64,000 nt of DNA from Escherichia coli. Its GTDB lineage: Bacteria; Pseudomonadota; Gammaproteobacteria; Enterobacterales; Enterobacteriaceae. The stretch lies in the NCBI RefSeq assembly GCF_009931435.1, contig NZ_CP043414.1, one strand, 5' to 3'. This document shows positions 3,215-53,654 of the stretch, piece by piece; the stretch's first letter is position 1; each line of letters opens with the position of its first letter. Below the pieces are notes generated by a model. That model searched no databases. It worked only from the letters and a program-made list of their open reading frames with translations, and was not told where the DNA came from. The position numbers were made by a program, and so were the translations under genes.

Positions 3215-4087
3215 TCAGAAGAAAATCCAGTTCCATACCGCACGGGCAACAGAGACCACCGTGTCACGAACAGCGCGCAGGGCCGTACGGACAACAGAGG
3301 CAACACAGACGCTCTCCGCTGTGTCAAATATCCGGTCCACCGCACCGGTAAACTGTTCACGGGCCTGAGAGCGGACAGATTCCGTGCGCAGCTCGTCCTG
3401 CAGTCGGGTCATCAGGGGACTGGCGGCATGGTCGGGAAGCGCTGTCATGAGCGCACTGACCAGCGTATCCAGTTCCCAGCCGGTGCGGGCCGATACGGCC
3501 ACAACCGGATGTACGGGCCGGAACAGACGGAATACCGCCTCCGTTTTTTCGCGAATATTCTGTGCCTGTGCAGGAGAAGGCTGAATACCGGCCATATCCC
3601 ATTCATGGCAGGGCTCCGTTTTGTCGGCCTGCGTCACCACAAACAGTACCCGCTGATGTCCCCGGTGCAGGATGTGTCGCCAGAAATACTCATCCACAGA
3701 CAGGGCACGGTCATCGGCTTTAATCAGCCACAGTACCAGGTCAAGTTCAGGCAGAATGTCACGGTACAGGGCCTCATACTCTGCATCCCTGTCCCGGCTC
3801 TCGCCCACCCCGGGCAGGTCAGTGATAACCATGCTGTGACCGTGGCCACTCAGACGGAAGCGCCGTACTTCCCGGGTGCCGGCGTGAACATCACTGACCG
3901 GGGTGACCTCCCCCTGAAACAGTGCATTACAGAGTGAGGATTTACCGGCCCCGCTTTTACCCATAATGCCAATCACGGGTTCGTGACGGGTGAGTTTGCG
4001 CAGATGTTCCAGGATGTGACGGGAAAGCGAGTAAGGCAGGGAGGAGAGCGGTTTTTCAATTGCCTCAATGGCATCAGACGGATTCAT
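3215..4087 (-). CDS. yeeP: YeeP/YfjP-family prophage GTPase (50S ribosome-binding GTPase-like), apparently full length
   Basis: Translation from internal ATG at 4087 (MNPSDAIEAIEKPL...) with P-loop GIMGKSGAGKSS and DLPG motif; ORF-track start at 4126 is probably an N-terminal over-extension. Confidence 0.8.
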   Translation of the reverse strand: MNPSDAIEAIEKPLSSLPYSLSRHILEHLRKLTRHEPVIGIMGKSGAGKSSLCNALFQGEVTPVSDVHAGTREVRRFRLSGHGHSMVITDLPGVGESRDRDAEYEALYRDILPELDLVLWLIKADDRALSVDEYFWRHILHRGHQRVLFVVTQADKTEPCHEWDMAGIQPSPAQAQNIREKTEAVFRLFRPVHPVVAVSARTGWELDTLVSALMTALPDHAASPLMTRLQDELRTESVRSQAREQFTGAVDRIFDTAESVCVASVVRTALRAVRDTVVSVARAVWNWIFF

Positions 4088-5315
4088 ACATGTATTCCCG
4101 GTGAAAAAAGACAAAACCCCGCGCACCGGAAAGGTGGCGGGGGATTCACGGAGATAATATCTGTCTGAAATTGTTTTTAATCGATGGGATTGTTGCGTAT
4201 TAACATGAAGGAGATCAGGACTTATCCGTTACTGGGTGATCTCCTTCCATGAAAATACGCCGTTATTGTTAAACAGCAGGCTGATTTCTCCGTAAAGGGG
4301 AAAATATTTATCGGCTGCATGATTATCAGGTGTGTCTGTGTTTACTGCTGTGAGTATTTTTCAGTGTATTGTGGGGGAGATGTCAGTGGGAGATATTAAA
4401 TTTACATTTATAATTATCTTACTTCTTCTGTGTGTTTTTTATAAGAGTGCACACGTAATGATATCTGTTGATACCATGTGGTTAAGTGTTTCCCTTCCTG
4501 GTCATGCGTAATGATTAAATGCTTTTGTGACACCATTCTTCCGGTCTGAATATTTATCCCGTTCTTTTTTATTTGTGCAGTGATACTGTCGGAAGAGAAT
4601 TCAGTAATGTGAGGTGTCCTGGTCAGGATAATATCTGCTGAGATATTATTAGTTGAGTGTGTTTTTACTGAGCAAAAGCTGGCTTTTAATTCCTGTACTG
4701 AAACGCTGTTGCTCGTCCGGGGTTAACTGAAACTGGATGATGATGTAAAATGAAGGCTGTTTTTGTGTTTGTCGAAGAAGTGTTATTTTAATCCATTCTC
4801 ATCATTGGCTGGCGATTATACAGAAGTATTTGAAGAAAAAATGGTGCATTTTATCTGCGTCAGCAGGGAGGAAGTATTTTATTGATGTATCAGTATTAAA
4901 TGGTTTTTGTTATTTAGAAATATGTCATCCTGTCCATAGAATATTGTACTCAGCATTCAGTGCAGGAACTGTAGTCTTCTTTATTTTATTCTTCTTCAGG
5001 AGGGGGGATTCCTGAAGGCGTTATTCCCGGTGTTCTGTTTATGATTCATCCCGGCAGGAAACCGGTATCTGCAATACCCGGGATGATGCTTTTTGTTCGT
5101 ACGTGGTTGTGTAAAATTTGAATAGTGGATGTGCTCTGAAGGGAAGGAGGGGACACACAGATTCATTTTGTCTTTCTTCAGCAGCAAAACACACTGTGGT
5201 TATTATTTAACCATTAAATCAACAAAAATTTTTACCTCATATTGATTTGACTGCTATTTTTGCTATTAATAGCCAGAATTGCAGTACTTTTATATCTGTG
5301 TGTAGTGAGGTTACT

Positions 5316-32659: not shown

Positions 32660-39736
<7,077 letters not shown>

Positions 39737-40048
39737 GCTTACCTTCCCTGAACGAGCTAACATAAATGCGCCCTTTCTAGCACAGCGAAAAAATGTAAAT
39801 ACTGATAGCAATATGATTGAAAATTAATAACTTTTCGTTAGGCAGTTTTGGGTGTGAGTTGCAAGAGGGGAGACTACTGAATAACTCAAGTTTTATAATC
39901 GAGGGGAAAATGGTGATGGCGTTCATAGCAAAACGCCCTCAACCATAAAGGTCGAGGGCGCTTAAGATGTTAAAAACCCGCTATCCGTTAAAAAACAATG
40001 TTCAACTAAGGTCAGTGACATTGCGCTAAAAAGCGAATTTTTAGAATT

Positions 40049-45849: not shown

Positions 45850-46521
45850 ATGAAGATTTTACTTATTGAAGATAATCAAAGGACCCAGGAGTGGGTAACG
45901 CAGGGGCTTTCCGAAGCGGGTTATGTCATTGATGCCGTTTCTGATGGCAGAGATGGGCTTTATCTTGCGCTGAAGGATGATTATGCATTGATAATTCTGG
46001 ATATTATGCTTCCGGGTATGGATGGCTGGCAGATCTTACAAACGTTAAGAACAGCAAAGCAAACCCCTGTTATTTGCCTTACTGCAAGGGATTCTGTCGA
46101 TGACAGAGTCAGAGGGCTGGACAGTGGAGCAAATGATTATCTGGTAAAACCTTTTTCATTTTCTGAGTTGCTGGCAAGGGTTCGGGCACAATTAAGGCAA
46201 CATCACGCTTTGAATTCAACATTAGAAATCAGTGGCTTAAGAATGGACTCTGTAAGTCAAAGTGTGAGCAGGGACAATATCAGTATTACACTGACGCGCA
46301 AGGAGTTTCAGTTACTTTGGCTACTGGCCTCCAGAGCTGGCGAAATTATACCCAGAACGGTTATTGCGAGTGAAATTTGGGGAATCAACTTTGATAGTGA
46401 TACCAATACGGTGGATGTCGCCATTCGCAGGCTCCGCGCAAAAGTTGATGATCCTTTTCCTGAAAAGCTAATCGCCACAATCCGGGGGATGGGCTATTCA
46501 TTCGTAGCGGTAAAAAAATAA
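45850..46521 (+). CDS. hprR: Response regulator HprR (YedW), OmpR family
   Basis: 223 aa from MKILLIEDNQRTQEWVTQGL... Confidence 0.9.
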   Translation: MKILLIEDNQRTQEWVTQGLSEAGYVIDAVSDGRDGLYLALKDDYALIILDIMLPGMDGWQILQTLRTAKQTPVICLTARDSVDDRVRGLDSGANDYLVKPFSFSELLARVRAQLRQHHALNSTLEISGLRMDSVSQSVSRDNISITLTRKEFQLLWLLASRAGEIIPRTVIASEIWGINFDSDTNTVDVAIRRLRAKVDDPFPEKLIATIRGMGYSFVAVKK

Positions 46522-47879
46522 TGAAAAGATTGTCTATAACCGTCCGTTTAACCTTGCTTTTTATATTGCTGCTGTCTGTTGCTGGCGCTGGAATTGTCTG
46601 GACTCTCTATAATGGCCTGGCAAGTGAGTTGAAATGGCGCGATGATACAACACTCATTAACCGGACAGCACAGATCAAGCAGTTGTTAATTGATGGGGTA
46701 AATCCAGATACGTTACCTGTATACTTTAACCGGATGATGGATGTTAGTCAGGATATCTTGATCATTCATGGTGATGGCATCAATAAAATTGTTAACCGGA
46801 CAAATGTCAGTGATGACATGTTAAATAACATACCTGCTAGTGAGACAATCAGCGCAGCTGGCATTTACAGAAGCATTATTAATGATACTGAGATTGATGC
46901 TTTACGAATTAATATTGATGAAGTTTCGCCATCATTAACGGTTACTGTGGCTAAATTGGCTTCAGCCAGACATAACATGCTTGAACAGTATAAAATTAAT
47001 AGCATTATAATTTGCATTGTCGCCATTGTACTTTGCTCAGTATTAAGTCCGCTGTTAATCAGAACGGGATTACGAGAGATCAAAAAGTTGAGTGGTGTAA
47101 CGGAAGCGCTGAATTATAACTATAGCCGAGAGCCTGTTGAGGTTAGCGCATTACCGAGAGAACTAAAACCTCTTGGGCAGGCGTTGAATAAAATGCATCA
47201 AGCCTTAGTCAAAGATTTTGAACGCCTAAGTCAATTTGCTGACGATCTCGCTCATGAACTTAGAACGCCCATTAATGCATTACTGGGTCAGAATCAGGTT
47301 ACGCTCAGTCAAACCAGAAGTATCGCTGAATATCAAAAAACAATTGCCGGTAACATTGAAGAGTTGGAAAATATTTCGCGGTTAACAGAGAACATACTGT
47401 TTCTTGCCCGGGCAGATAAAAACAATGTTTTGGTGAAACTGGACTCGCTTTCTCTCAATAAGGAAGTCGAAAATTTGTTGGATTATCTTGAATATCTTTC
47501 AGACGAGAAAGAGATTTGCTTTAAGGTCGAGTGCAATCAGCAAATCTTTGCGGATAAAATTTTACTGCAACGAATGTTATCGAATCTTATTGTTAATGCC
47601 ATTAGATATTCACCAGAAAAATCGCGTATTCATATAACCAGTTTTCTTGATACCAACGGCTATCTTAATATTGATATCGCCAGTCCTGGAACGAAAATAC
47701 ATGAGCCTGAAAAACTCTTCCGTAGATTTTGGCGGGGAGATAATTCGCGTCATTCCGTAGGTCAGGGACTTGGTCTTTCTTTAGTCAAAGCGATTGCCGA
47801 ATTGCATGGGGGAAGTGCTTCATATCACTATCTCAATAAGCATAATGTGTTCCGAATTACGTTACCGCAAAGAAATTAA
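46521..47879 (+). CDS. hprS: Sensor histidine kinase HprS (YedV)
   Basis: 452 aa, two TM helices, H-box LAHELRTP, HATPase region. Confidence 0.9.
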   Translation: MKRLSITVRLTLLFILLLSVAGAGIVWTLYNGLASELKWRDDTTLINRTAQIKQLLIDGVNPDTLPVYFNRMMDVSQDILIIHGDGINKIVNRTNVSDDMLNNIPASETISAAGIYRSIINDTEIDALRINIDEVSPSLTVTVAKLASARHNMLEQYKINSIIICIVAIVLCSVLSPLLIRTGLREIKKLSGVTEALNYNYSREPVEVSALPRELKPLGQALNKMHQALVKDFERLSQFADDLAHELRTPINALLGQNQVTLSQTRSIAEYQKTIAGNIEELENISRLTENILFLARADKNNVLVKLDSLSLNKEVENLLDYLEYLSDEKEICFKVECNQQIFADKILLQRMLSNLIVNAIRYSPEKSRIHITSFLDTNGYLNIDIASPGTKIHEPEKLFRRFWRGDNSRHSVGQGLGLSLVKAIAELHGGSASYHYLNKHNVFRITLPQRN

Positions 47880-47986: not shown

Positions 47987-48838
47987 TTAACCCGCGTAAG
48001 CTGCCAGCATTTCCTGCGCCGCCAGTTTACCCAACGCATTCGCTGCGAAAGGACTGTCGCCGGTGAGAAGTTTACGGTCCTTATGTACTCGCCCGGTGAT
48101 GTCGTCATTAATGATGTTCATGCCCATTTGCTTCAGCTCTTCGCCGAAGTACCAGGTGAGATGACCTGGCATATAGCCAATATCTGGCGTTTGTTTGTCT
48201 GCGGCGTCTGGGAATGCGCAAATGGAATAACCATTCAGTGGGTTATCGCCGTGGCGAAGCGCCAGAAAAGCCGCCGGGCCGTGGCAAAGGGAGATAACAA
48301 AACGGTCATTTTTGATTGCCCACTGTAAAGCGGCAGCTACGTCCTGGCTTTCAGGTAAACCAATAAGTGCGCCATGACCACCAGGAACAAAGATTGCTGC
48401 ATATTCGCTATCAGCGTTGAGGCTGGCGACAACATCCGCGAGTTTCTTCGGATTGCGGAACAACGATTTATGCTGCTCAAAGAATGGCATTACTTTTTCA
48501 TCTTTGTGCGGCATAGCCCAGTATTCAAACTTGGTCATCAGACCGGAAATGGTCGCCACTTCGAATTCGAAACCTGCAGCATGGAGATGATACAACGGCA
48601 GCAACGTTTCAATCGGATGGTTACCGGTCGAGAACAGTTTTCCGTTATCGGTTGGCAAATAACGTTCGTCCGCGGCGATCACCAGAATTTTATGCTTACC
48701 GCGATACGGTTTTGGATAGTCCACGCCATCAAGATCAGAGACGGGACTGGTATATTGGCTAAGCGAATATTCTGAAGGGAAGAACGCATTATCTTCAGCA
48801 ATATCGACCTGCGGATTTTTACTTGTTTGAACAGTCAT
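47987..48838 (-). CDS. hchA: Hsp31 glyoxalase / protein deglycase
   Basis: 283 aa DJ-1/PfpI family. Confidence 0.9.
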   Translation of the reverse strand: MTVQTSKNPQVDIAEDNAFFPSEYSLSQYTSPVSDLDGVDYPKPYRGKHKILVIAADERYLPTDNGKLFSTGNHPIETLLPLYHLHAAGFEFEVATISGLMTKFEYWAMPHKDEKVMPFFEQHKSLFRNPKKLADVVASLNADSEYAAIFVPGGHGALIGLPESQDVAAALQWAIKNDRFVISLCHGPAAFLALRHGDNPLNGYSICAFPDAADKQTPDIGYMPGHLTWYFGEELKQMGMNIINDDITGRVHKDRKLLTGDSPFAANALGKLAAQEMLAAYAG

Positions 48839-49349
48839 AGTGTATTCCTTATTGTTGCTTAGTTAGGGTAGTCACTATATTTGCGACTGAGCTGGTCGCT
48901 ATTTTTAACCAGGCTGGAAAATTGAGTCAATATATCGAAAGCGGTAGTCGGCGGGTGTAAGTATGTAATGATGATGCTGCACTGGTGTTGAATATTATTC
49001 ACGCCAAATTTTCCTTATTGAGCAACGTCGTCGCAAGTGGCCTCAATGATTTTAGACCATTATCAGAGATGCGGGGCGGTGGGGAGAGATTTAGTGATGT
49101 GGAATATTGTGGTGCTGATGAATATTTATATCGCGGATTGGTAGAGAAAAAGCTTATTTCATGCACTATTTTTGCAAAGATTTCTATTTGGGAAGCGTGT
49201 TTGTTACGGGGTAATTCATCAGAATGTGCATTTGGGGTGTTGGCTGGAAGAGTCGCTGGTAGATGTTATTGTGGCAGGAGGGGCAGGGTAAGGTGCTGTA
49301 TCGATATGCTTTGGCAATTGCGTGTGCCGCAGATGGAGATGAAATGCCA

Positions 49350-49387
49350 ATAAAAAAGCCTGAGTTCGATGAGGGACGAACTCAGGC
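49350..49387 (-). terminator. Rho-independent terminator downstream of yedS
   Basis: 12 bp stem agcctgagttcg / cgaactcaggct followed by a U-run on the minus strand. Confidence 0.7.
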
Positions 49388-49430
49388 TAGTGTTATGTTT
49401 TACAGTAACACGCCGCGGCGCGTTGGCTGA

Positions 49431-50504
49431 TTAGAACTGGTAGACGATACCAACTGCAAACTGGTCATCAGTTGCGGCATCGGTAATCGCTGCATCGTCT
49501 TTATCCAGCAGGTTAAATTTGTATGCTGTGTAGACGTTCATGTTCTTATTGAAGTAGTACCAGGTACCAACTTCGATATAATTTACGCGGTCAGCATCAA
49601 CACCTTTATGTCCATCACGAGCATAAAGATCTTTGCCTTTGGAATATACGTAGCCTAAAGACGGACGTAAACCGAAGTCGAACTGATACTGTACAACAGC
49701 TTCAAAGTTTTGGGTTTTATTTGCAAAATGATCATTAGCCAAAACGGTCATGTTGCGGGTTTCACCGTACATCATTGCTGCATAGATATTATTTGCATCA
49801 TACTTGGCTGCTAATGACCACACTTCAGCGTTATCACCGTAGCCGTCACCAGCTTGTTCATTAGTACGATCAGATTTGCTATATGCACCTACAAAACCAA
49901 AACCTTCGATGTTGTAGTCTACAGACAACGCATAGCCATCACCGTTTTGTTTAGTAACGCCACGATTGCTGTTCTTACCTTGATATTGCACAGCAAAATT
50001 CAGACCATCAACCAGACCAAAGAAATCAGAGTTACGGTAGGTTGCAACACCGTTGGTACGACCGTTCATGAAGTTGTCAGCGGAAGCCCAGGAATCACCA
50101 CCCCATTCAACTAACATATCGGTATAAGCTGCGGCATCATAAGCAACACCGTAGTTACGACCATAGTCGAAAGATCCTAACTCGTTATATTTCAAACCTG
50201 CGAAGGTTAAACGGGTTTTTTCCTGATTAGAGCCTTCGGGCTTGCTGGCGTCGAGGTTGTATTCAAACTGACCAAAACCAGTCAGTTCGCTGGTGATTTG
50301 GGTTTCACCTTTAACACCGAAACGAGCATAGGAGGTATCTTCGTTTTCGCTGTTATTATCATCAGTATTTGACCAGATGCGTTCGCCAACCATCTTGCCG
50401 TAGAAATCAACTTTATTGCCATCTTTATTGTAAATTTCAGCCGCATTTGCTGCGCCAGCAACTAATAACGCCGGGACCAGCATTGCCAGAACTTTTCTTT
50501 TCAT
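49431..50504 (-). CDS. yedS: OmpC/OmpF-family general porin, intact
   Basis: 357 aa from [21 protein letters not shown]; C-terminal ...VGIVYQF beta-barrel terminus. Confidence 0.8.
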
Positions 50505-51131
50505 TATGTATTCCCTTGTGATTATAATCTTCATGAATATATCAATAAGTGCCGTTATCCAAAAAAAAGCACATTTGGATACTATTCTATGAAGTTCATT
50601 TTATTTTAAGGATTACATGTAACAAATGTATTTAAAAGATTTCAAAATGTTTCTAATCTATTTAATATAATTCAGAATTATGAATTCTAAATATAAATAT
50701 TCATGAAATTATAAATGTATATCAATATGTTATGAGTTGAGCGGAAACATAGGGGGTATCAATGATTGTTGCGCCAAACGGCTGGTGTGATCAGGCGCAC
50801 ATTAATGAAGGCATAAAAAAAGCCGGCATCATGCCGGCCCAAAAAATATAAACAAGACGATAAAAGGCTAATAACGGAAGCATCATGACACAGAATAATA
50901 AAAAGGTATAATTGTAATCAGTGCTAATATATTGATTAAATGAATTAATAAAGCCGATATCAAAGATAAATAAAATCGCTCAAAACGATTTTTCCTGTAT
51001 TCACTGCCGTTGCGCAAAATTTATCTATTTGTTCAAAAAATGATTGAGTCTTGACTGGCTCATCCAATGTGGAAAAATGTGACTTTTATCACATAATAGT
51101 ACTAAGTCTGAATTTTCCGGGTTATCTCAAA

Positions 51132-51434
51132 ATGGAATACGGTTCGACAAAGATGGAAGAGAGACTCTCTCGCAGCCCTGGCGGCAAACCGGCTTTGTGG
51201 GCTTTCTATACATGGTGTGGCTATTTCGTCTGGGCAATGGCGCGTTACATCTGGGTGATGAGCCGGATCCCCGATGCCCCCGTGTCGGGATTTGAAAGCG
51301 ATTTAGGCTCTACCGCGGGAAAGTGGTTAGGGGCACTGGTCGGATTTTTATTTATGGCTCTGGTCGGGGCATTGTTAGGCAGCATTGCCTGGTACACCCG
51401 ACCTCGTCCCGCACGTAGCAGACGCTATGAATAA
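51132..51434 (+). CDS. yedR: Small inner-membrane protein YedR (start uncertain; alternative GTG at 51069)
   Basis: MEYGSTKMEERLSRSPGGKPALWAFYTWCGYFVW... Confidence 0.7.
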   Translation: MEYGSTKMEERLSRSPGGKPALWAFYTWCGYFVWAMARYIWVMSRIPDAPVSGFESDLGSTAGKWLGALVGFLFMALVGALLGSIAWYTRPRPARSRRYE

Positions 51435-51473: not shown

Positions 51474-52169
51474 ATGGACTTACAACACTGGCAGGCACAG
51501 TTCGAAAACTGGTTGAAAAACCATCATCAGCACCAGGACGCGGCCCATGACGTGTGTCATTTTCGCCGCGTCTGGGCTACGGCACAGAAGCTGGCGGCAG
51601 ATGACGATGTCGATATGCTGGTGATTTTAACCGCATGTTATTTTCACGATATCGTGAGCCTGGCGAAAAATCATCCGCAACGGCAGCGTTCTTCAATACT
51701 GGCAGCAGAAGAGACGCGTCGCCTGCTGCGTGAAGAATTCGCGCAATTTCCGGCGGAAAAAATCGAGGCTGTTTGCCATGCCATTGCCGCACACAGTTTT
51801 AGCGCGCAAATCGCCCCTTTAACGGCGGAAGCTAAAATCGTTCAGGATGCGGATCGGCTGGAAGCTCTGGGGGCGATTGGCCTGGCGCGTGTGTTTGCCG
51901 TTTCGGGGGCGTTGGGCGTGGCATTGTTTGATGGCGAAGATCCGTTCGCGCAGCATCGCCCACTTGATGATAAACGTTACGCGCTGGATCATTTTCAGAC
52001 TAAGTTGCTGAAGCTACCGCACACCATGCAAACCACAAAAGGCAAACAACTGGCGCAGTACAACGCGCAATTTTTAGTCGAGTTTATGGCGAAGCTCAGT
52101 GCTGAGCTGGCGGGGGAGAATGAAGGTATCGATCACAAGGTGATTGATACGTTTTCACCGGTTGGCTGA
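51474..52169 (+). CDS. yedJ: HD-domain phosphohydrolase
   Basis: 231 aa with HD motif (CYFHDIV). Confidence 0.85.
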
Positions 52170-52235: not shown

Positions 52236-53654
52236 ATGCAGGAAAATATATCAGTAACCGATTCATACAGCACCGGGAATGCCGCACAGGCAATGGTGGA
52301 GCAACTGCTGCAAATTTATGATGTCAAAACGCTGGTGGCGCATCTTAATGGTGTGGGTGAGAATCACTGGAGCGCGGCAATTTTAAAACGTGCGCTGGCG
52401 AATGACTCAGCATGGCACCGTTTAAGTGAGAAAGAGTTCGCACATCTGCAAACGTTGTTACCCATTCCACCGGCACATCATCCGCATTATGCGTTTCGCT
52501 TTATCGATCTATTTGCCGGGATTGGTGGTATTCGTCGCGGTTTTGAATCGATTGGTGGGCAGTGCGTGTTTACCAGCGAATGGAACAAACATGCTGTACG
52601 CACTTATAAAGCCAACTATTATTGCGACCCGGCGGTGCATCACTTTAATGAAGATATTCGCGACATCACTCTCAGCCACAAAGAGGGTATAGGTGATGAC
52701 GCGGCGGCGGAACATATCCGTCAACATATTCCTGAGCACGATGTTTTACTGGCCGGTTTTCCTTGTCAGCCGTTTTCTCTGGCTGGCGTATCGAAAAAGA
52801 ACTCACTCGGACGAGCGCACGGTTTTGCCTGTGATACCCAGGGCACGCTGTTCTTCGATGTGGTGCGTATTATCGACGCGCGTCGCCCGGCGATTTTTGT
52901 GCTCGAAAACGTCAAAAACCTGAAAAGCCACGACCAGGGGAAAACGTTCCGTATCATCATGCAGACGTTGGATGAACTGGGCTATGACGTGGCAGATGCA
53001 GAAGATAATGGCCCGGACGATCCGAAAATCATTGACGGTAAACATTTCCTTCCGCAGCACCGTGAACGCATCGTGCTGGTGGGTTTTCGTCGCGACCTGA
53101 ATCTGAAAGCCGATTTTACCCTGCGTGAGATCAGCGAATGTTTCCCTTCACAGCGAGTGACACTGGCGCAGTTACTGGACCCGATGGTTGAGGCGAAATA
53201 TATCCTGACGCCGGTGCTGTGGAAGTACCTCTATCGTTATGCGAAAAAACATCAGGCGCGCGGTAACGGCTTCGGTTATGGAATGGTTTATCCGAACAAT
53301 CCGCAAAGCGTCACGCGTACGCTTTCTGCTCGTTATTACAAAGATGGCGCGGAAATTTTAATTGATCGCGGCTGGGATATAGCCACGGGTGAGAAAGACT
53401 TTGACGATCCGCAGAACCAGCAACACCGCCCACGTCGGTTAACGCCTCGTGAATGTGCGCGCTTAATGGGCTTTGAAGCACCAGGAGAAGCGAAATTTCG
53501 CATTCCGGTTTCGGACACTCAGGCCTATCGCCAGTTCGGTAACTCGGTGGTCGTGCCGGTCTTTGCCGCGGTGGCAAAACTGCTTGAACCAAAAATCAAA
53601 CAGGCAGTGGCGTTGCGTCAGCAAGAAGCAAAACATGGCCGACGTTCACGATAA
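52236..53654 (+). CDS. dcm: DNA-cytosine (C5) methyltransferase Dcm
   Basis: 472 aa; FAGIGG, PCQPFS and ENV motifs. Confidence 0.95.

Follow-up and report, generated by a model that had tools for sequence, protein, structure and literature searches.

A complete OmpK35-like porin at the yedS position of Escherichia coli

The porin gene and its product

The DNA analysed here, referred to as the window, is a stretch of 64,000 nucleotides from an Escherichia coli genome. It carries hprS, hchA, a porin gene, rseX, drpB, yedJ and dcm in the gene order of the K-12 yedS locus, in inverted orientation. The genes of the locus and the features of the porin gene are as follows.

46521-47879, plus strand: hprS
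47987-48838, minus strand: hchA
49350..49388, minus strand: intrinsic terminator, a stem-loop (49388..49357) followed by a T-run, from the terminator scan
49431..50504, minus strand: porin coding sequence, 357 aa plus stop, from the ORF listing; a short OmpK35-like cassette at the yedS locus
49431..50420, minus strand: mature-protein coding region, the cassette that diverges from K-12, from the sliding identity to K-12
50442..50504, minus strand: signal-peptide codons 1-21, with predicted cleavage before AEIYNK, from the alignment to OmpC and OmpF
50511..50517, minus strand: Shine-Dalgarno-like AAGGGAA, 6 nt 5' of the ATG at 50504, read directly from the sequence
50815..50904, minus strand: gene for the Hfq-binding small RNA RseX, a full-length match to Rfam RF01401 (97.7 bits against a gathering threshold of 50, E 1.4e-13)
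51051-51434, plus strand: drpB/yedR ORF, only part of which is covered by the annotated drpB
51474-52169, plus strand: yedJ
52236-53654, plus strand: dcm

The ORF listing of the window gives a single minus-strand ORF that extends from its first ATG over 49431..50534 (367 aa). We rejected this in-frame ATG at 50534 as the porin start, because it lacks a Shine-Dalgarno sequence, all orthologues start with MKRKVLA and the RefSeq protein has 357 aa. The start of the 357-aa form is also the one in the RefSeq annotation of four other genomes. This protein begins MKRKVLAML and ends VGIVYQF. The preliminary description had asked whether alignment would reveal frameshifts; end-to-end alignment found none in the window porin, and there are no internal stops, with 100% coverage against full-length orthologues. 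The signal peptide is nearly identical to those of OmpC and OmpF and has the same cleavage context. The terminator, about 43 nt past the stop, has a 12-bp stem with 7 G-C pairs, an 8-nt loop and a TTTTTTAT tail. Thus the elements first described from the letters, a 357-aa ORF with a signal peptide, a C-terminal beta-barrel signature (YQF) and its own terminator, are all present, on the minus strand. RseX has the same orientation as the porin gene and lies 310 nt 5' of its start, as in K-12, with a terminator at 50840..50820.

The intergenic region between hchA and the porin gene (48839-49356) has a strong GC skew of 0.3-0.5 and differs from K-12 somewhat more than the flanks around it do, with 51-55 of 60 positions identical in places. 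Small hypothetical ORFs are annotated there in some RefSeq genomes, and the region gave no Rfam match. Farther away, a 2383-aa ORF occupies 32660-39811 on the minus strand, and the inverse autotransporter adhesin YeeJ is annotated in matching genomes within the 24 kb searched (window 38000-62000).

The match to the porin family anticipated in the preliminary description is present over the full length of the domain: Pfam Porin_1 (PF00267) scores 407.7 bits against a cut-off of 23.7 (E 6e-122) and is matched at model positions 1-337 of 337. Scores for the NCBIfam models of OmpF (NF007446, 449 against a cut-off of 583), OmpC (NF007841, 432 against 484) and PhoE (NF007544, 424 against 599) all stay below their cut-offs. 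The protein is therefore a general porin that is none of these three, its pore selectivity cannot be taken from any named orthologue, and PGAP names it only 'porin' because the cut-offs for named porins are not reached. By sequence, the nearest solved structure is OmpK35 (506 bits), followed by the 5o78 chain, E. coli OmpF (400 bits) and OmpC (∼337 bits). The 5o78 chain is labelled PhoE in the sequence search and E. aerogenes Omp35 in Foldseek.

An AlphaFold2 model built on an alignment of 27 sequences contains 16 long strands (pLDDT 79.4, pTM 0.77) and, with low pLDDT, a helix at N-terminal residues 2-16. All top Foldseek matches of the model are OmpF, OmpC or OmpK35/36; the comparison with OmpK35 (5o77) gives TM scores of 0.85/0.90 and an rmsd of 3.3 Å at 66% identity. 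In OmpF numbering, the basic ladder K16, R42, R82 and R132 and the acidic L3 residues D113 and E117 are conserved in the alignment, as are the terminal Phe and, in loop L2, the latch residues E71 and R100. The L3 motif is VEWGG, not PEFGG. We considered VEWGG as a clade-specific L3 signature and rejected it: OmpK35 and related OmpF-type porins have VEWGG too, so it is no new signature.

The closest solved structures, OmpK35 of K. pneumoniae (5o77, 9hn1) and Omp35 of E. aerogenes (5o78), share VEWGG, the basic ladder and the acidic L3 with the window porin, which differs from them in a very short L6 and in its L4-L8 loops. OmpK35 we take to be the ompF orthologue, at another chromosomal locus. 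The fold, cleavage context, constriction residues and C-terminal Phe are likewise common to the window porin and E. coli OmpF, OmpC and PhoE, whereas identity to these is only 59-62% and L3 carries P116V and F118W. By analogy with the family, the precursor would be exported by Sec and lose its 21-residue signal peptide, and the C-terminal YQF would serve as the family's terminal-Phe signature for outer-membrane assembly into a trimer of 16-stranded beta-barrels. L3 would fold into the barrel and place D113 and E117 opposite the basic ladder K16, R42, R82 and R132, a constriction predicted to let small hydrophilic solutes, including beta-lactams, pass by diffusion.

Relation to K-12 yedS and descent of the mature domain

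In K-12, yedS is a 1193-bp pseudogene, b4496 (older fragments b1964-b1966; called 'ompS1' in some papers). That it is broken there, as stated in the preliminary description, agrees with its annotation and with its translation, which contains one in-frame stop, at a position that is Gln in intact alleles, and one frameshift. In an alignment of the two loci, the stretch that runs from drpB over RseX and the whole upstream region to the 5'UTR and signal peptide is 99-100% identical, and the 130 nt from −100 to +30 of the porin start are identical. Identity per 60 alignment columns falls from 56-60 to 15-48, with many gaps, between ∼50420 and ∼49431 and returns to 58-59 after the stop. Across the mature region it is ∼60-70% at the nucleotide level and ∼60% at the amino acid level. 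Since 39% of barrel-strand positions differ between the window porin and K-12 YedS, the divergence goes beyond the loops.

Amino acid identity to the conceptual K-12 YedS (60-61%) is in the range of that to OmpF (61-62%), OmpC (59%), PhoE (59%) and OmpN (60-61%). The alignment to K-12 yedS and to OmpC and OmpN that had been proposed as a check thus yields a full-length porin at ∼60% to each, and the earlier name, an intact yedS, holds in part. It is right for the position and for the upstream DNA, 5'UTR and signal peptide (99-100%); it does not extend to the mature protein, which at ∼60% is no closer to YedS than to OmpF, OmpC, PhoE or OmpN. The same distances bear on the idea that the window gene is the undamaged ancestral form of K-12 yedS, lacking only the stop and the frameshift. 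Although the shared chromosomal position and the identity of 100 nt upstream and of the first 30 nt of coding sequence would fit that idea, we give it almost no credence, because the mature protein is as far from K-12 YedS as the four paralogous porins are and because intact proteins of the K-12 type exist and are a different protein, of 395-404 aa and 86% identical to K-12.

This long class differs from the window porin in its length, in much longer L4-L7 loops and in a PEFGG L3. The two have the family and the locus (hchA to rseX/drpB) in common, and the long class is 71-72% identical to OmpN. Its 395-aa variants are found individually on up to at least 1000 contigs, under names that vary among 'porin OmpC', 'outer membrane protein N', 'outer membrane protein S1' and 'yedS'. 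On these alignments, 'yedS' is the name of a position and not of one protein, and the K-12 class is a long OmpN/'OmpS1'-like cassette behind the same promoter, 5'UTR and signal peptide.

PGAP assigns the name 'ompC / porin OmpC' to long-class porins at the yedS locus, for example at 4001-5203 of the E. albertii locus L028 and also in L010, L011 and L012. These porins are only ∼66% identical to K-12 OmpC, and the name could confuse automated calls of porin loss.

Beyond E. coli, a porin of the window type adjoins yedJ and dcm in E. fergusonii, Enterobacter, Citrobacter and K. oxytoca; drpB is called between yedJ and the porin gene in E. fergusonii and K. oxytoca. Amino acid identities of these syntenic porins to the window porin are as follows.

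E. fergusonii: 86%
Enterobacter hormaechei: 80%
Citrobacter: 80%
Klebsiella oxytoca: 75%

This gradient is in step with the relatedness of the genera, which argues for vertical descent of the window type at the yedS locus. E. albertii has the long class at the same locus. Since E. fergusonii has the short one, both classes occur across Escherichia species.

A recent horizontal transfer could also have placed the cassette here, as an OmpK35/OmpF-type gene acquired from a different enterobacterial genus. In both structure and sequence the cassette matches Klebsiella OmpK35 best, and not E. coli OmpF; identity breaks off sharply at either end of the mature region, a sign of recombination; and the GC content of the porin gene (∼43%) is below that of neighbouring genes. 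We nevertheless consider such an import improbable. The closest relatives outside E. coli lie at the same syntenic locus, their order of identity (E. fergusonii above Citrobacter and Enterobacter, Klebsiella last) fits vertical descent, and the homologue search found no protein from outside Escherichia more than 81% identical. The replacement could as well have been the K-12/OmpN-like class, which E. albertii carries.

In the E. fergusonii locus L020 (6663-9688), a second porin (369 aa) and a TrkH-family gene lie between the yedS-type porin and hchA. We rejected this second porin, a tandem paralogue, as the origin of the K-12 class, given its identity of only 63% and its NmpC-like signal peptide.

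Regulation of the locus

Two further features occupy the interval between RseX and the porin gene.

50505..50783, minus strand: AT-rich 5' regulatory region and 5'UTR, from the composition profile and the K-12 alignment
50784..50804, strand not given: CRP-type palindrome GGTGTGATCAGGCGCACATTA, an exact 21-mer match with 0 expected by chance

The 280 nt 5' of the porin start have a GC content of 21-28% and match K-12 at 99-100% of positions. In K-12, loss of hns, alone or together with stpA, relieves the repression of RseX 'and surrounding areas' (PMC8313858), and by analogy with the identical K-12 DNA the upstream region of the window porin is probably silenced by H-NS. Like other quiescent porins, the window porin would probably be expressed at a low level in laboratory culture, since K-12 has the same AT-rich upstream DNA, silenced there by H-NS/StpA. 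The porin would then matter for permeability mainly upon de-repression of the locus or loss of both OmpF and OmpC. The candidate CRP site is near-consensus and lies between the RseX terminator and the porin upstream region; a 2026 preprint (PMC12871828) lists this very 21-mer among CRP footprints obtained in vitro and assigns it to K-12 yedS. The K-12 yedS mRNA is listed, under the name 'ompS1', as 2.5-fold repressed in the sigma-E regulon table of a microarray study (PMC2731931).

Searches for other control elements gave results at the level of chance. A scan for sigma-70 hexamers upstream of the porin gene returned 7 sites against 7.0 expected, so no promoter can be assigned. An OmpR box was rejected: the 11-mer ACATTTTGAAA (50640-50650, minus strand, 146 nt 5' of the start) equals the ompC C1 core, and since 118 of 1000 shuffles share an 11-mer with the ompC upstream region it is a lead only and not evidence. 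Warner and colleagues (2013) reportedly described MicF control of YedS. Here, pairing of the MicF 5' seed with the yedS translation start reached −7.7 kcal/mol, a value attained by 384 of 500 shuffles, and this candidate was dropped; the ompF control gave a seed duplex of −27.1 kcal/mol (0/500 shuffles). Pairing of RseX with the porin leader, likewise rejected, was no better than in shuffles (z ∼0).

The quiescent porins OmpN and NmpC of E. coli and OmpS1 and OmpS2 of Salmonella are, like the window porin, extra general porins beside the major ones. The window porin shares with them an AT-rich upstream region at a locus silenced by H-NS/StpA, the silencing here being probable by analogy. OmpS1-type porins are controlled by LeuO and OmpR.

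Spread, loss and variation in E. coli

The exact window protein occurs on at least 1000 public contigs, under the name 'MULTISPECIES: porin [Enterobacteriaceae]'. Its mature-domain DNA is at least 99% identical in 706 of 5426 complete E. coli genomes and alignable over at least 80% of its length in 1528 of them (roughly 28%; the short class); the additional alignable genomes, where sampled, carry an 88%-identical, 371-aa type as in H10407. Many strains, isolated from water, pigs, poultry and humans, match the 24 kb around the porin gene at 100% identity, L3Cip3 and CP66-6 among them. To gauge integrity, we took 19 genomes at even steps down the ranked list of genome matches and found an intact porin at the yedS locus in 14 and a broken one in 5.

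ABWA45: IS1 insertion, with the cassette at 100% identity
30EVA2: nonsense codon, S45*
Z217-4, an O157:H7 strain and CDC#03-98: frameshifts

Intactness is thus usual, K-12 is the exception and loss recurs. The inactivation of the window cassette in close relatives (ABWA45, 30EVA2) means that it is dispensable in at least some lineages. The suggestion in the preliminary description that the porin is strain-specific fails on these counts of contigs, complete genomes and intact alleles; the porin is already known, is common in E. coli and is present in RefSeq and UniRef.

The literature contains related observations. According to the accounts available in PMC4048246 and PMC11267920, a functional, translated YedS in carbapenem-resistant clinical E. 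coli affects carbapenem susceptibility (Warner et al. 2013, Antimicrob Agents Chemother 57:1935). It is, like the window porin, an intact porin of the yedS locus, whichever cassette it carries. A porin described as '50% homologous to K-12 YedS', which may be of either cassette class, was detected in the surface proteome of O26:H11 (PMC9731836). Because of its polymorphism, the yedS-yedR intergenic region has served as a marker of host source (PMC11267920).

The recurrent loss raises the alternative that the window gene is intact only by chance of timing, at a permanently silent and dispensable locus that drifts to a pseudogene, as in K-12 and O157, and is useless to the cell. Breakage that is independent and repeated (IS1, a nonsense codon and several frameshifts in 5/19, plus K-12), H-NS silencing of the region in K-12 and a promoter signal no higher than chance would all agree with such drift. 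It is still rather unlikely in our judgement. Values of dN/dS for the window gene are 0.06-0.18 against orthologues and 0.12 against the H10407 allele, the latter at an unsaturated dS of 0.49, and indicate long-term purifying selection and a gene maintained as protein. Synteny is kept across at least four genera and most sampled genomes (14/19) are intact. The functional YedS as cited in PMC4048246 and the proteome detection in O26:H11 also speak against drift. The reading that we prefer, and hold with good confidence, is that the window ORF is a complete OmpF/OmpC/PhoE-type porin at the yedS position, with a mature domain that is a distinct short cassette and with expression that is probably low. 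The porin is probably functional, and it may bear on permeability or phage receptor variation as the preliminary description proposed.

Besides the 357-aa and 371-aa forms, the yedS locus carries a 352-aa type (UPEC 536, Nissle-like; 69% amino acid identity), a 387-aa type and the K-12 class of 395-404 aa. The sampled cassettes (357, 371, 352 and 387-404 aa) are 59-90% identical in pairwise comparison, and the distance between the most divergent pairs is as large as that among OmpF, OmpC, PhoE and OmpN; the signal peptide is identical across all sampled E. coli alleles of the locus. Mosaic alleles are also found. The window porin and the H10407 allele (432-1547 of its locus, L008) differ at 2 of the first 166 residues, and after residue 166 at ∼33 positions, together with a 14-residue L6 insertion in H10407. 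One E. coli protein (P0021) is a mosaic of an H10407-type N-terminal half and a 536-type C-terminal half.

We found no description of yedS cassette classes in the searchable literature. One tentative explanation, possible though not one that we favour, is that the yedS locus is a site of porin cassette exchange, in which a single conserved, H-NS-silenced promoter, 5'UTR and signal peptide are combined with at least four deeply divergent mature cassettes, a pattern that would reflect long-term balancing or diversifying selection. The cassette polymorphism is the sole aspect that might merit a dedicated population-genetic study.

K-12-based reasoning on sequence, antibodies and permeability does not carry over to genomes with the short class (roughly 28% of the complete ones), and in resistance genomics the PGAP label 'OmpC' on the long class can mislead calls of porin loss. 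In clinical strains deficient in ompF and ompC, an additional intact OmpK35-like pore may, by analogy, constitute a latent entry route for beta-lactams. Were cassette exchange to be true, phages, colicins or antibodies could be the agents of selection, and a porin assumed to be silent would have to be expressed and exposed in natural habitats. If the polymorphism does stem from selection, the ecological role of 'quiescent' porins becomes testable.
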